Shown in pieces: positions 43,444 through 48,297 of a stretch of 64,000 nucleotides of DNA (position 1 is the first letter of the stretch; every line of letters starts with the position of its first letter). The DNA comes from an uncultured Syntrophales bacterium (GTDB lineage Bacteria; Desulfobacterota; Syntrophia; Syntrophales; JAAYKM01), in the NCBI GenBank assembly GCA_964494155.1, contig CAZBQX010000001.1:43286-107285 (forward strand), given 5' to 3'. The position numbers and the translations under genes are program-made. The notes under the pieces were generated by a model. It made no database searches and was not told the origin of the DNA. It saw only the letters and a list, made by a program, of their open reading frames with translations.

Positions 43444-44593
43444 GATTCTTGACCTCTTTCTGATAGATTTCATACAAACATCGAATAAATAATGTCACAT
43501 CCGCCGCATCATGTAAAGCCGACATGCCGATCCGCAGGATGGCATGATGGAGCGCCACAGTCGGATAACGTGCCGGAAAAACCAGAATGCCCCTTTCTTT
43601 AAGAGCCAAGGATACCCGAACGGCCAGATCTTCATTTCCAACTTCAACCCCCAGTATGTGTGCATCGCCGAAGGCATAAAATCCTGCCTGGGATAGAACC
43701 TTTTTCATGCTGTGACTGATTGCGGCCAGTTTTTCCCTTTCCGGATCCGCCTGCCCGACGATCTTGAGAATTTCTACGGCGGCCGCGGCATGGGACGGGG
43801 GAAGGGTCGTCGTGAACATCAGGGGGACGGAAAAATTGATCAGGTATTCTTTGATCATGCCCGGTAAAAGGAGAAAGGCGCCGAAAAAGCCGAAAGCCTT
43901 GCCGAAAGTACCTACTGCAATATCGGCGACGTCCCTGGCGATGCCACGACCTCCGGAACCGATGGCGCCGAAGGAATGGGCTTCATCGACGATAGACAGG
44001 AAAGCGTATTGTTTTTTCAGCCGGGCCAGGTTATTCACATCCAGGAGGTCTCCGTCCATGCTAAAAAGTGCTTCTGTCACCACCGCCGTCTGGGACATAC
44101 CGTTTTTATTGAGCTTTTTTTCCAAATGATCGAGGTTCCCATGGCGAAAACCGATAACGTCGGCACCGCTTAGGGCCATTCCTTTCACACTGCTGGCATG
44201 AATATGCTGATCCACAAGGACCTGGTCACCCGGTTCAAAGAGGGCGGACAAAAGGCCCAGATTCGCCTGAAAACCGCTGGGAAAAAAGAGGGCTGCTTCA
44301 TAGCCGAAATATTCGGCATAGGCCGCCTCCGCCTCCCGGATGAGTTGATAATTCCCCGTCACCAGACGGGATGAGGACGACGACGTACCATGACGTTCGA
44401 TATTTCGGATGAGAATGTCCTTCAAAACTGGAGAATCAGCCAACCCCAGGTAGTCGTTGGAGGCGAAACTCAGGTAGGGTTTCCCGTCCAGATAGACATA
44501 TTTACCCTCTTTTTTTTCGATGACCGGGGGATTTCGGTACAATCCCGTTTTTTTCTGAAGGCTCAGTCGGTCCCGGATGCGTTGGTTAAACAT
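43436..44593 (-). CDS. bioF: 8-amino-7-oxononanoate synthase
   Basis: Alpha-oxoamine synthase layout (SNDYLGL, DEAHSFG, GTFGKAFG). Confidence 0.9.
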   Translation of the reverse strand: MFNQRIRDRLSLQKKTGLYRNPPVIEKKEGKYVYLDGKPYLSFASNDYLGLADSPVLKDILIRNIERHGTSSSSSRLVTGNYQLIREAEAAYAEYFGYEAALFFPSGFQANLGLLSALFEPGDQVLVDQHIHASSVKGMALSGADVIGFRHGNLDHLEKKLNKNGMSQTAVVTEALFSMDGDLLDVNNLARLKKQYAFLSIVDEAHSFGAIGSGGRGIARDVADIAVGTFGKAFGFFGAFLLLPGMIKEYLINFSVPLMFTTTLPPSHAAAAVEILKIVGQADPEREKLAAISHSMKKVLSQAGFYAFGDAHILGVEVGNEDLAVRVSLALKERGILVFPARYPTVALHHAILRIGMSALHDAADVTLFIRCLYEIYQKEVKNHG

Positions 44594-45015
44594 GCAAATA
44601 CCTGTTCATAATGTTCTTTTAGTCTCGCCGCCTCGAATTTCCCGTCATAATCCATCGTGGAAAACCAGAACTCGCCCTTTATAACGGTTTGCCCCTCCCG
44701 TTCTGCCCATATCCGGTAAATGAAACTGCGGTCACTCTGTCCCGTCAATTCTCCTTTCAGTTTTAAATGACCGGCCTCCGGCAACGGGTCCGGCAGAATG
44801 CATCGTCTCACCTTCATGAGAAACGCATGCTTATTGAAATCATGACACCGTCGAATATGGAATGCTCCGAGTTGTGCCAGGGCTTCGATAAGCTTAAAAA
44901 CAGCCTTCCCATCAAAGGCGGCGCTCCCCCTTATTTCATCGGACCCGATGGCGACAATCCGATCCAGGAGAAGAACGGATTTTAGACCGGAGTTCATTAT
45001 CTTTTCTTCCGACAT
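44563..45015 (-). CDS. Hotdog-fold FabZ-like subunit that keeps the catalytic Glu motif but lacks the His motif
   Basis: LLLDRIV...FKLIEALAQLG aligns with FabZ FLLVDRV...[11 protein letters not shown]. No HFPG motif. The start is uncertain (45015 or 44997). The upstream part of the tracked ORF overlaps the KAS gene. Confidence 0.65.
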   Translation of the reverse strand: MSEEKIMNSGLKSVLLLDRIVAIGSDEIRGSAAFDGKAVFKLIEALAQLGAFHIRRCHDFNKHAFLMKVRRCILPDPLPEAGHLKLKGELTGQSDRSFIYRIWAEREGQTVIKGEFWFSTMDYDGKFEAARLKEHYEQVFACLTNASGTD

Positions 45016-45026
45016 CTCCTGCCGCC

Positions 45027-46229
45027 TTATATCTTGATGACCAGGGCCGCGTTTTGGCCGCCGAAACCGAAATTTTCGATGATAAATGTCTTGCCCCGGA
45101 CATGGCGACCCGTATGGACAAAGTCGATCCCAGGTACACAGGGTTTCTCCAGATTCCTGATCTTGGGAAGGTATCCCATACCCTGAGCGGTTATGGCAAC
45201 AGCCAGTTCGACGGCGCCGCAGGCCGTGGATAGATGACCGATCCAGGACTTCAGGGCGATCACAGCAGGCGTCCGGCCGGGGCAAACTTCTCTGATGATC
45301 TTCGCCTCCACCTGATCGTTCAAGATCGTACCCGTACCGTGGGCAACAACGAAGTCGATTTCCTCCGGTGAGACATCTGCTTCCGCCAGGGCTTTCCAGA
45401 CAGCCTGGGCCGCCGTTTTCCCGTCAGGCGACGGCGCGGTCATGCGGTATCCGTCAATGGTATTGCCGTAACCCGAGATTTCTCCAAGAATGGATGCACC
45501 ACGATCCAGCGCATGGTTGCGCTCTTCAAGAACAAAAAACGCCCCCCCTTCCCCGGAAACAAAACCGCCACGATTCTCGTCGAAGGGACGGCTCGCCTGA
45601 TCCGGATCGCCTTCGCCTCTGAAAAGGGCCCCCGCCGTCTTGTATGCGAGGATGCCTCCGGGATAGGCCCGGGAATCACCCCCCCCGGCCAGGGCACAGT
45701 CCAGGTATCCGTCCCGGATGCGCCGGAAAGCTTCACCAATTGCCGAAAGAGCGGCGGCACAGGCTGTGCCGACCGTCAGATTTTCACCCCGGATGCCACA
45801 GGACTTGGCAATGACCGATGCCGCCGTATTGGGCAGAAACCGGAGAATCCACAGGGCATCGACTTTACTGCGCTCCATTTCACCGCCGGTGATATGGGGA
45901 AATTCGGTACCGATGTCAAGGTGAGGTCCCACCCCGACAAAAAGCCCCGCTTCGGCCAACACTTCACGTGTCAAACCAGCCCCCCGAACTGCATCCAGGG
46001 CGGCCGCCAAAGCGAAAGCGGCGCCACGGTTCAGATAACGCCGTTCCTTGAATGCCCCCGTGTAACGCCGGAGTTCAAAATCCCGAACGGGCGAAACGAC
46101 AACTTCCGGTTCGAAATCAGGCCTTTCAAAAATAACACGGCCTTCCAGAAGCGATGATCGGATCTCTTCCGGAGATTTGCCGAGGGACGAAATGACCCCC
46201 ATTGAAGTGAGAACAACGCGTCTTTTCAT
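45027..46229 (-). CDS. Beta-ketoacyl-ACP synthase, elongating Cys-His-His type
   Basis: GTACAAALSAIGEA (Cys), AHGTGT (His), GHLSTACGA (His). Confidence 0.9.
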   Translation of the reverse strand: MKRRVVLTSMGVISSLGKSPEEIRSSLLEGRVIFERPDFEPEVVVSPVRDFELRRYTGAFKERRYLNRGAAFALAAALDAVRGAGLTREVLAEAGLFVGVGPHLDIGTEFPHITGGEMERSKVDALWILRFLPNTAASVIAKSCGIRGENLTVGTACAAALSAIGEAFRRIRDGYLDCALAGGGDSRAYPGGILAYKTAGALFRGEGDPDQASRPFDENRGGFVSGEGGAFFVLEERNHALDRGASILGEISGYGNTIDGYRMTAPSPDGKTAAQAVWKALAEADVSPEEIDFVVAHGTGTILNDQVEAKIIREVCPGRTPAVIALKSWIGHLSTACGAVELAVAITAQGMGYLPKIRNLEKPCVPGIDFVHTGRHVRGKTFIIENFGFGGQNAALVIKI

Positions 46230-47246: not shown

Positions 47247-47263
47247 CCATTCCCCACCTTGAA

Positions 47264-48019
47264 TTAATGTTTTATGATGCCCGTTTTTCCGGCGGACAAT
47301 CCGCCGTCCAGCGTCAGAATCGATGCGTTGATTCCGACTGCGGCCGGTGATAAAAGAAAAAGAATCGCCTCCGCCACTTCGTCCGCCTCCAGGGCTCGCT
47401 GGAGGGGAACCTGCCGGATAATTTCCGGATTCTCTTCCAGAAAGGCGCGACCGCGGCCGGCCTGGACATAACCGGCGCGCAGAATCACGCTGGTGATACC
47501 CTTTCCCGCCAATTCAAGGCCACAACTCCGGTAAAGGGCTTCGGCGGCGAGTTTCGCCGCAGCATAAACCCCCTGCCCCGGCGCGGGTCTCTCCGCGGCG
47601 GATGAGGAAACATAAATCAGCCGCCCTCGCTTCTTCCGAAGCATGCCTCTGGCCACACATTTCAATAGGATGGCCCGGGCGGCGACATTCTCCGAAAAGT
47701 AGGCCCGTATGCTATCTTCATCGGCTGCGGCGATTAGCGTTTCATAATCACCCTGGGCAAAATCGACGAGAAAATCAAAGCCGGAATACTTTGCAAAAAG
47801 CGTCTCCAGCGACAGCGGGTCGCCGAGGTCGAACCGGACAGTCTCATAACGACCGGAATAGTCCGCAAGAGCGGCATTGATCTTTCCGCACCCATCCGAA
47901 TCTCGCCAGGACAGGATGGGGAAAAATCCCTTTTCGATCAGTCCGGGAGCCAGGGCAAGGGCCAGTTCACATGTTCCGCCTAAAATCAACCCTTTAGGCC
48001 GGTCACCGGGTCCGTTCAT
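47264..48019 (-). CDS. Short-chain dehydrogenase/reductase (3-oxoacyl-ACP reductase-like)
   Basis: Catalytic SSS...YAAAK and an atypical glycine-rich loop GGTCELA. ATG at 48019 forms an ATGA overlap with the upstream hotdog gene. Confidence 0.8.
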   Translation of the reverse strand: MNGPGDRPKGLILGGTCELALALAPGLIEKGFFPILSWRDSDGCGKINAALADYSGRYETVRFDLGDPLSLETLFAKYSGFDFLVDFAQGDYETLIAAADEDSIRAYFSENVAARAILLKCVARGMLRKKRGRLIYVSSSAAERPAPGQGVYAAAKLAAEALYRSCGLELAGKGITSVILRAGYVQAGRGRAFLEENPEIIRQVPLQRALEADEVAEAILFLLSPAAVGINASILTLDGGLSAGKTGIIKH

Positions 48020-48297
48020 GTCTTCAGTTTCCCCCTGACCATCATCGCATCTCCCTGCATGAGCAAACACTCCCACCGATCGGCCCGGCGTTCCATGCGA
48101 TAAGCATAAGACCCGGGAATGACAAAGCTCCGGAATTGAAAACCCTCTATTTCACGTACGGTTCCTGCCAGATCGAGAAAAGCCTGGATGATAAGGCTTC
48201 CCGGCACAACAGGGTAACCGGGGAAATGGTCGGTATAAATCCCGTCGGATGGATCGAAGCGGATCGTGCCTTCTTTAACGATATGCGGCGTATCCAT
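48016..48297 (-). CDS. Mini hotdog-fold FabZ-like subunit that keeps the catalytic His motif but has Gln in place of the Glu
   Basis: DHFPGYPVVPGSLIIQAFLDLAG compared with FabZ [23 protein letters not shown]. Only 93 aa. Confidence 0.7.
   Translation of the reverse strand: MDTPHIVKEGTIRFDPSDGIYTDHFPGYPVVPGSLIIQAFLDLAGTVREIEGFQFRSFVIPGSYAYRMERRADRWECLLMQGDAMMVRGKLKT

Follow-up and report, generated by a model that had tools for sequence, protein, structure and literature searches.

Within biotin synthesis, no part varies more among bacteria than the formation of the pimeloyl moiety, which has yet to be fully worked out, and the route that relies on enzymes resembling those of fatty acid synthesis (FAS) is the main pimeloyl route that has genetic support but no biochemistry. 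Here we analyse a biotin (bio) operon carrying six FAS-like genes in a 64-kb stretch, hereafter the window, of contig CAZBQX010000001.1 from an uncultured Syntrophales bacterium. The comparative-genomics proposal mentioned in the initial annotation of this stretch is that of Rodionov et al. (2004; PMC545781), who described five FAS-related genes in the bio operon of Desulfovibrio and proposed a novel pimeloyl route. Genetic evidence was later obtained by Trotter et al. (2023; PMC10102598), who used randomly barcoded transposon sequencing (RB-TnSeq) and found that the D. vulgaris genes DVU2558-2565, which include two FabZ-like open reading frames (ORFs), a ketoreductase, an acyl carrier protein (ACP) and a ketosynthase (KS), are specifically needed in the absence of biotin, as is the unlinked nitroreductase DVU1220, and that bioC and bioH are missing from the genome. 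The same authors proposed a route with a specialised ACP, with no methyl esters and with elongation from malonyl-ACP, and pointed to a nitroreductase-like gene in the clusters of Syntrophobacter fumaroxidans and Desulfobacter vibrioformis as a possible missing enoyl reductase (PMC10102598).

In the window, the six FAS-like genes most likely make the seven-carbon precursor of biotin. We assign a probability of about 0.75 to the operon being a Desulfobacterota-type extended biotin operon, that is, a BirA-controlled unit in which a type II FAS (FAS-II)-like module gives pimeloyl-ACP to BioF without the methyl-ester disguise provided by BioC and BioH. A BioC/BioH-independent pimeloyl route had been put forward in the initial annotation, and it is supported by conserved synteny, an operator-like site, the catalytic residues of the encoded proteins, the lack of alternatives in the window and the genetics of D. 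vulgaris. The operon is a further example of the described system, including its nitroreductase-containing form, and not a discovery, and this instance leaves the above picture of pimeloyl formation unchanged.

Organization of the extended biotin operon

All coordinates given here are positions in the window, and the operon genes from birA to bioD all lie on the minus strand. Along this strand the order is birA, bioA, a gene for a 93-amino-acid (aa) hotdog protein, a short-chain dehydrogenase/reductase (SDR), an ACP, a nitroreductase-family protein, a KS with a Cys-His-His (CHH) triad, a 150-aa hotdog protein, bioF and bioD. The ORFs together with their Pfam and NCBIfam matches confirm the arrangement bioB <> birA-bioA-[six genes]-bioF-bioD as first annotated, and the six inserted ORFs, likewise confirmed, span 44563-48297 on the minus strand. 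Protein identities were assigned by Pfam and NCBIfam profile searches, with scores judged against the family cutoffs. The block comprises genes for a truncated FabZ-like hotdog protein of 93 aa (48016..48297; PF07977, 27.5 bits), a 251-aa SDR that is a candidate 3-oxoacyl-ACP reductase (47264..48019, ATG at 48019; adh_short and adh_short_C2), a specialised ACP of 122 aa (46878..47246; PP-binding PF00550, 36 bits against a cutoff of 20.8), a 214-aa nitroreductase-family, flavin mononucleotide (FMN)-type protein that is a candidate enoyl-ACP reductase (46230..46874; PF00881, 92.2 bits against a cutoff of 23.5), a FabF-like elongating KS of 400 aa (45027..46229; N- and C-terminal ketoacyl-synt domains), and the 150-aa hotdog protein, whose fold comes from an AlphaFold2 model (44563..45015, ATG at 45015 preceded by the Shine-Dalgarno sequence AGGAG). 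All FAS-like proteins with a family match hit their general families and score far under the cutoffs of housekeeping FabF, FabG, FabZ and AcpP; they are divergent paralogs.

On either side of the block are biotin genes. The product of birA (49771..50763, minus strand; GTG at 50763 with an alternative ATG at 50748) contains HTH_11, BPL_LplA_LipB and BPL_C domains and scores 225 bits, above cutoff, with TIGR00121; given the helix-turn-helix (HTH) domain, it is a repressor-type ligase, that is, a bifunctional biotin ligase/repressor. The bioA gene, encoding the 7,8-diaminopelargonate (DAPA) aminotransferase, lies at 48301..49674 (minus strand; TIGR00508, 545 bits against a cutoff of 405). Downstream, bioF (8-amino-7-oxononanoate synthase; 43436..44593, minus strand) carries an Aminotran_1_2 domain and is matched best by TIGR00858 (326 bits, under the cutoff of 426), and bioD (dethiobiotin synthase; 42748..43443, minus strand, ATG at 43443) matches TIGR00347 with 139 bits against a cutoff of 83. 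The biotin synthase gene bioB (50882..51877, plus strand; Radical_SAM and BATS domains) is divergent from the operon.

The coordinates agree with the overlapping or nearly abutting junctions (ATGA, 8 nt and 31 nt) noted at the outset. A gap of 3 nt separates bioA from the 93-aa hotdog gene, the SDR starts on the stop of the latter in an ATGA overlap, gaps of 17 nt and 3 nt follow between SDR and ACP and between ACP and the nitroreductase-family gene, the latter abuts the KS gene, and an 11-nt gap, a 31-nt overlap and an 8-nt overlap mark the KS/150-aa hotdog, 150-aa hotdog/bioF and bioF/bioD junctions, respectively. The tight junctions stand, and the co-translation of the block with the biotin genes that had been claimed from them is better worded: the block genes are probably co-transcribed and translationally coupled, the spacing between birA and bioA being a 96-nt gap. 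Terminator-like sites show no excess in the region, with 12 observed against 12.1 expected from shuffled sequence. The idea that the block is a foreign insertion was also considered, and its GC content (0.49-0.61) shows no clear contrast with the flanks.

The divergent intergenic region between birA and bioB harbors a BirA operator-like palindrome, TTGTCAACT-N14-GGTTGACGA (50777..50808, unstranded). This inverted repeat occurs once in the window against zero copies expected by chance, as counted with a search pattern built on the actual half-sites, and a stricter BirA pattern found none, the right half-site ending in GACGA. The form of the palindrome matches the delta-proteobacterial BirA operators listed by Rodionov et al. 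(2004; PMC545781), and among 86 loci retrieved from relatives, 44 have the same pattern immediately ahead of the gene that opens the cluster. The operon is thus likely to be under BirA control through this putative operator.

The window was also searched for genes of other pimelate routes, by a Pfam scan outside 34.5-55 kb, restricted to ORFs of 150 aa or longer, and from precomputed annotations for the middle 20 kb. No BioC-type methyltransferase, alpha/beta hydrolase, BioW, P450 or FabH-like protein was found among window ORFs of at least 150 aa, which bears out the earlier statement that bioC, bioH, bioW, bioI and bioZ-type genes are lacking from the window. The sole methyltransferase-like match in the window belongs to the Cons_hypoth95 family (PF03602), and we take it to be RsmD-like. 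Thus, within the 64 kb there is no pair of methyltransferase and pimeloyl-ACP methyl ester esterase that would mark a BioC-BioH route, and the bio cluster holds no FabH-like 3-ketoacyl-ACP synthase III (KAS III) with a Cys-His-Asn triad, the mark of a BioZ route, its KS being FabF-like with Cys-His-His.

Predicted chemistry of the six-gene module

In the pathway that we propose, the specialised ACP would receive phosphopantetheine on Ser36 and be charged with malonate; the block encodes neither of the loading enzymes, a phosphopantetheinyl transferase and FabD. The FabF-like KS would accept the malonyl, and later the glutaryl, thioester on Cys157, leaving the omega-carboxylate free, and would condense this primer decarboxylatively with malonyl-ACP, such that malonyl-ACP would be both primer and extender. 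The SDR would reduce the 3-oxo group, a heterodimer of the two hotdog proteins would dehydrate the product at a composite site formed by His24 of the 93-aa and Glu44 of the 150-aa chain, and the nitroreductase-fold flavoprotein would reduce the enoyl double bond. Two such rounds would lead from C3 through C5 to C7, via glutaryl-ACP to pimeloyl-ACP, which BioF would condense with alanine. Several elements of this scheme are inferred: which substrates are used and over how many rounds, that the carboxylate stays free, that the hotdog proteins form a heterodimer, and that the nitroreductase-family protein is the enoyl reductase. The initial annotation had listed a carrier protein, a condensing enzyme, a ketoreductase and a dehydratase as the enzymes needed, and candidates for all four are present; its list left out the enoyl reductase, for which the nitroreductase-family protein is the candidate.

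The residues expected of a carrier, a condensing enzyme and a ketoreductase are conserved. Ser36 of the ACP lies in an ESID motif of the D/E-S-L/I-D kind to which the prosthetic group of carrier proteins is attached and is kept in 76/76 orthologs, and the protein scores under every NCBIfam ACP cutoff. With respect to E. coli AcpP it contains a conserved insertion of about 45 residues (median ortholog length 123 aa), which may keep this carrier apart from the housekeeping FAS. When the KS is aligned to E. coli FabF, Cys157, His297, His332, Lys327 and Phe389 of the GFGG loop are found to be kept in 68/68 orthologs, and the protein therefore has the Cys-His-His triad, the equivalent of Lys335 and the GFGG loop of the FabF/KAS II type. 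Its TIGR03150 score of 288.5 bits falls short of the cutoff of 493.75; it is a divergent KS and not the housekeeping FabF. The SDR retains the tetrad N111/S139/Y152/K156, with the Y-x3-K spacing of ketoreductases such as FabG; its cofactor motif, GG[ST]C[ED]L[AG], is degenerate with respect to the TGxxxGxG of FabG, the FabG models match below their cutoffs (TIGR01830, 81.5 bits against 297.75), and Arg189 is invariant where FabG has Met188.

The KS also differs from FabF at positions that may bear on its substrate. FabF F202 is replaced by Tyr196 and A193 by Arg187 in 68/68 orthologs, while G203 is replaced by Lys or Arg in 62/68 and A204 by Lys in 64/68. FabF Phe202 is, together with Ile108, a gating residue of the acyl pocket (Mindrebo 2020; PMC7138838). 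In the literature we found no mention of Ala193 as an acyl-pocket residue, F202 and I108 being the two that are confirmed; Arg187 may nevertheless be located in the acyl pocket. As judged from sequence, the polar and basic replacements fit a pocket that accepts a carboxylate, and they are in line with the idea of less hydrophobic active sites in these enzymes, which Trotter et al. (2023; PMC10102598) put forward as a suggestion.

The two hotdog proteins appear to divide one active site between them. In the FabZ dimer, each active site is built from a His of one subunit and a Glu of the other. The 93-aa protein aligns without gaps to FabZ structures over the HFPGxPxxPG motif (HFPGYPVVPG in this protein), with His24 as the catalytic His. 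This His is present in 66/66 orthologs, and the position of the catalytic Glu is never Glu, being occupied by His, Gln, Arg and other residues. It is Gln38 in the window; codon 38 (48184-48186) encodes Gln here and His in 43/66 orthologs. The protein scores 26 bits with TIGR01750 against a cutoff of 155 and also has a weak ApeI-like Pfam match. The 150-aa protein has no Pfam or NCBIfam match, and a sequence search of the PDB gave no true match, an Sm protein at E = 1.2, the only match, being rejected as spurious. Its AlphaFold2 model has a hotdog fold (pLDDT, the predicted local distance difference test score, 87), and Foldseek aligns it to FabZ with a template modelling (TM) score of 0.67-0.72 and to thioesterases with a TM of about 0.6, the matches including the ApeI:P dehydratase heterocomplex (PDB identifier 6QSR). 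The Glu of FabZ (Glu44 in IEALAQ; E-[AS]-[LM]-A-Q in the family) is kept in 61/61 orthologs, and the loop that bears the His of FabZ is deleted. Thus neither protein has both His and Glu of a single-chain FabZ, and from their reciprocal, family-wide loss it is predicted that the two chains are obligate partners in a heterodimer that has one active site. We propose that the 93-aa protein is the His-donating and the 150-aa protein the Glu-donating subunit of a heterodimeric dehydratase. Outside the FabZ motif, His53 (44857-44859) and His135 (44611-44613) of the 150-aa protein are nearly invariant, and an invariant Arg55 follows one of these two histidines.

The subfamily that contains the nitroreductase-family protein has a sharp boundary: its homologs extend to 38% identity at E ~1e-37, the next matches having E = 1e-10. 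The AlphaFold2 model of the protein (pLDDT 86) shows an alpha+beta FMN-binding fold, with a TM of 0.84 to PDB identifier 3EO8. The nearest structures are two uncharacterised flavoproteins of Clostridioides difficile, followed by the C-terminal domain of FbiB (FbiB-C; PDB identifiers 4XOM/4XOQ; TM 0.76-0.83), and the sequence matches include the enone reductase CLA-ER. The FbiB C-terminal domain (a dehydro-F420-0 reductase) and CLA-ER presumably reduce C=C bonds conjugated to a carbonyl or carboxylate, and a role of the protein as an enoyl-ACP reductase would be chemically reasonable because of these relatives. No enoyl-ACP reductase of the FabI, FabL, FabV or FabK type is encoded in the block, the SDR having the spacing Y-x3-K and not Y-x6-K, and the sole flavoprotein of the block has the nitroreductase fold and not an FMN-binding TIM barrel. 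In the standard block its gene lies between those of the ACP and the KS, and the regularity with which it is found beside the ACP gene suggests that the substrate is bound to ACP.

Conservation among relatives, variant loci and alternative explanations

A scan with an alignment of the nitroreductase subfamily, taking one genome per species, yielded 80 loci. The order of the block genes is the same across these 80 species-representative genomes, and the arrangement is therefore not a chance juxtaposition. Counting for each neighbour the loci at which the contig reaches far enough for a test, the ACP gene, which adjoins the nitroreductase-family gene, is present in 72/75, the KS and the SDR each in 67/70, the 93-aa hotdog protein in 66/70, the 150-aa hotdog protein in 60/65 and bioF in 55/59. 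At least one bio gene is found in 46/48, a co-occurrence that the initial annotation had named as a check on its proposal, and the position of the block is fixed between bioA (or bioB) and bioF. The loci are labelled Syntrophales, Desulfobacterales, Desulfarculales, Syntrophobacterales or more broadly delta-proteobacterial/Thermodesulfobacteriota in all cases but one. The exception (L054; JBQVLY010000058.1) is a block whose contig was assigned on binning to a Methanosarcinaceae archaeon, and since every other locus is of deltaproteobacterial or Thermodesulfobacteriota type, this label is most likely a binning error.

The 150-aa family is small: at 50% identity, only 221 representatives of it occur in a set of 1.84 billion proteins. 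Both of two distant members with readable context lie in the same cluster, and the contig of a third, at 911 bp, does not reach far enough to show its neighbours. There are 203 homologs of the ACP; the 120 listed are 120-153 aa long, and those of them named by source are of Syntrophales or Desulfobacterales type. The ACP search was also considered as a direct tie to DVU2562, and no Desulfovibrio label occurs among the 120 listed. The tie to the Desulfovibrio system is provided by gene order and by the clusters named by Trotter et al. (PMC10102598), one of which is among our loci (L060).

Several relatives carry reduced or displaced forms of the block. The SDR is missing from L040:9265-10630 and L087:4363-10212, which keep both hotdog proteins, the ACP, the nitroreductase-family protein and the KS between bioA and bioF; the ketoreductase step is apparently supplied from outside the block there. 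In two Desulfobacterales MAGs, where MAG denotes a metagenome-assembled genome (L074:2949-6621 and L062:52-3329), the ACP, the nitroreductase-family gene, bioF and bioD are followed by a co-operonic gene for a PcaD-like alpha/beta hydrolase (TIGR02427, 276-292 bits, above cutoff; nucleophile motif GLSMG; the two proteins 76% identical), and no KS, SDR or hotdog genes are found on these contigs. The two clusters may represent a hybrid route with an esterase. A Syntrophales MAG (L046:2816-6186) has an operon limited to bioB-bioA-ACP-nitroreductase, followed over the next 10 kb by unrelated genes (DsrE, rhodanese, glycosyltransferase), and the other block genes must thus lie elsewhere or be absent. 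In these variants, housekeeping enzymes probably replace some of the steps. The ACP-nitroreductase pair persists in L062, L074 and L046, and, as the reduced variants indicate, no other part of the module is linked as tightly as this core pair.

Two further loci have the block away from bio genes. In L059:8369-12285 the six-gene block stands alone, with Rnf/NADH-oxidoreductase genes upstream and genes for a pseudouridine synthase, CarD and an H+-pyrophosphatase downstream; bio genes are absent up to a distance of 8 kb, and reading of the upstream region revealed no evident BirA site. The block behaves there as an autonomous module. The other locus (L051:2467-13326) contains the SDR, the ACP, a 2145-aa signalling protein with Ser/Thr kinase, AAA_16, GAF, histidine kinase and receiver domains, the nitroreductase-family protein, the KS, the 150-aa hotdog protein and a radical-SAM CofH/MqnC-like gene, with no bio genes nearby; this locus could reflect co-option of a copy of the module, or an insertion.

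Several observations weigh against the pimeloyl pathway proposed above. Our literature searches found no biochemical study of the route in any organism, yielding just Trotter et al. (2023) and its preprint, in agreement with the initial annotation, which knew of no biochemical description and missed the genetic evidence of 2023 (PMC10102598). The partial blocks (L040 and L087 without the SDR; L046, L062 and L074 with only ACP and nitroreductase next to bio genes) imply that the module is not always self-sufficient and that the role of the nitroreductase-family protein may differ from generic enoyl reduction. Two of the 48 well-flanked loci (L051 and L059) carry the block without nearby bio genes. 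Finally, the thioesterases YdiI, HI1161 and PA1618 match the model of the 150-aa protein in the same Foldseek E-value range as FabZ.

These observations lend themselves to other explanations. The two loci without bio genes, one by Rnf and one with a kinase and a radical-SAM gene, would suit a block with a different acyl product, such as a lipid or a polyketide, that is merely located in the bio operon. Such an explanation appears extremely improbable in the face of the 46/48 bio-linked loci, the fixed position of the block, the BirA operator-like site upstream and the D. vulgaris requirement that is specific to biotin-free growth (PMC10102598). The partial blocks bear on the flavoprotein. It might not be the enoyl reductase at all and have another redox role, for example as a flavin electron donor to BioB, with the enoyl step left to housekeeping FabI or FabK. 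Trotter et al. leave both options open (PMC10102598), many members of the nitroreductase family are NAD(P)H:flavin oxidoreductases, and the L046 operon pairs the protein with bioB, bioA and the ACP in the absence of KS, ketoreductase and dehydratase. We regard this as unlikely, though as an option to be taken seriously, given that the gene comes right after that of the ACP in nearly all loci, that the pair is kept where other block genes are absent, and that the presumed function of FbiB-C, as well as CLA-ER, links the fold to C=C reduction.

The thioesterase matches, together with the lack of a sequence-level family match, could mean that the 150-aa protein is a thioesterase or a chain-length or release factor, and that the 93-aa protein dehydrates alone or with housekeeping FabZ. 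We find this rather improbable: the invariant Glu of the E-[AS]-[LM]-A-Q motif is present exactly where the 93-aa partner has lost its own, the TM scores to FabZ exceed those to thioesterases, a thioesterase would break down the very thioester on which BioF depends, and the 93-aa protein is a truncated hotdog lacking the Glu. A BioZ-like shortcut, in which a glutaryl thioester derived from glutaryl-CoA would be elongated once with malonyl-ACP and the 3-oxopimeloyl-ACP reduced once, also seems to us of low probability. A single set of KS, ketoreductase, dehydratase and enoyl reductase fits one round as well as two, and glutaryl-CoA is an intermediate of benzoate and lysine catabolism in the Syntrophales, which handle both glutaryl-CoA and pimeloyl-CoA. 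Against this, the KS is of the elongating Cys-His-His type and not FabH-like with Cys-His-Asn, the block holds no acyltransferase for loading glutaryl onto ACP or KS, and the same block works in Desulfovibrio, for which elongation from malonyl-ACP was proposed (PMC10102598).

We continue to favor the two-round, malonyl-primed module feeding BioF. A stronger version of it is that the block is a fully orthogonal mini-FAS for substrates with a free omega-carboxylate, combining a KS with a cationic pocket (Arg187, Tyr196, Lys197/198) that accepts malonyl or glutaryl as primer and does not decarboxylate it, a FabZ heterodimer with a split dyad and a new class of enoyl reductase with the nitroreductase fold, all of them unprecedented; we consider this version conceivable, if somewhat less likely than not. 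Should the nitroreductase-fold protein prove to be an enoyl-ACP reductase, a well-studied antibiotic target would gain a new class of enzyme. The present analysis adds testable predictions to the described system, namely the split-dyad dehydratase, the polar and basic residues of the KS that perhaps replace the methyl-ester disguise, and the ACP-nitroreductase core, and the naturally reduced variants show which parts housekeeping enzymes can probably replace.

The window also contains housekeeping genes (secA, fusA, rpsB, tsf, pyrH, frr, uppS, cdsA, dxr, rseP, ligA and others), and Rfam and tRNA scans of the window gave no match. At 54027-57575 and 60255-62024 there are ORFs without a Pfam match (172, 251, 389, 200, 130 and 589 aa), for some of which the choice of strand may be wrong; this run adjoins genes for a Peptidase_C39-domain protein, a Phenol_MetA_deg-family outer-membrane protein and a sigma-54 activator (57829-59325). 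At 28215-32746 an acetoacetate-decarboxylase-family gene lies by a CHASE2 adenylate/guanylate cyclase gene, after which come genes for an M48 peptidase and an SH3-domain protein, and a second M48 peptidase is encoded at 27340-28155. Proteins identical to those of the window were found on contigs of ENA ERZ27257500, JGI 3300028622 and SRR8476420, and the nearest species-level genomes are uncultured Syntrophales MAGs with 82-95% amino-acid identity over the block.

Comparison with described systems

The closest relative of the operon is the extended cluster of D. vulgaris. Like the window, and in the same order, DVU2558-DVU2565 comprises bioA, a FabZ-like gene, a ketoreductase, an ACP, a KS, a second small FabZ-like ORF, bioF and bioD, and the two share a BirA operator next to bioB and a specialised ACP; bioC and bioH are missing from the D. 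vulgaris genome and from the 64 kb of the window. They differ in the flavoprotein, since the D. vulgaris nitroreductase is unlinked, distantly related and has a 4Fe-4S domain, whereas the gene in the window lies in the block and corresponds to the Syntrophobacter/Desulfobacter form. Unlike in D. vulgaris, birA of the window is co-oriented with bioA and not divergent, and the host is an uncultured Syntrophales MAG. The nitroreductase-containing cluster of Desulfocicer (Desulfobacterium) vacuolatum DSM 3385 in the supplementary figure of Trotter et al. is the locus L060 of our scan.

Among the other pimeloyl routes, that of E. coli BioC-BioH is like the proposed one in delivering pimeloyl-ACP to BioF after a malonyl thioester has passed twice through condensation, ketoreduction, dehydration and enoyl reduction. 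It relies on the housekeeping FAS, whereas the module of the window has its own ACP, KS, ketoreductase, dehydratase and candidate enoyl reductase, and no methyltransferase or esterase is present in the window, the omega-carboxylate presumably being free. BioZ of alpha-proteobacteria is likewise encoded in the bio cluster as a dedicated condensing enzyme, with an ACP-bound pimeloyl precursor as its product, but it is a FabH-like KAS III acting on glutaryl-CoA with housekeeping reduction, in contrast to a FabF-like Cys-His-His KS accompanied by its own reductive enzymes.

Parallels to the component enzymes are found further afield. The aryl polyene ApeI:ApeP (PDB identifier 6QSR) and the mycobacterial HadAB/HadBC resemble the module in having two small hotdog proteins per cluster. 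In HadAB both catalytic residues reside in HadB. Unlike ApeI:ApeP and HadAB/HadBC, the two chains encoded in the window divide the His and Glu of FabZ reciprocally between them, in a complex that is predicted here. The nitroreductase-family protein shares its fold and FMN-binding motifs with FbiB-C and CLA-ER, but at about 23% identity it belongs to a distinct subfamily that is nearly confined to bio clusters and whose putative substrate is an ACP thioester.

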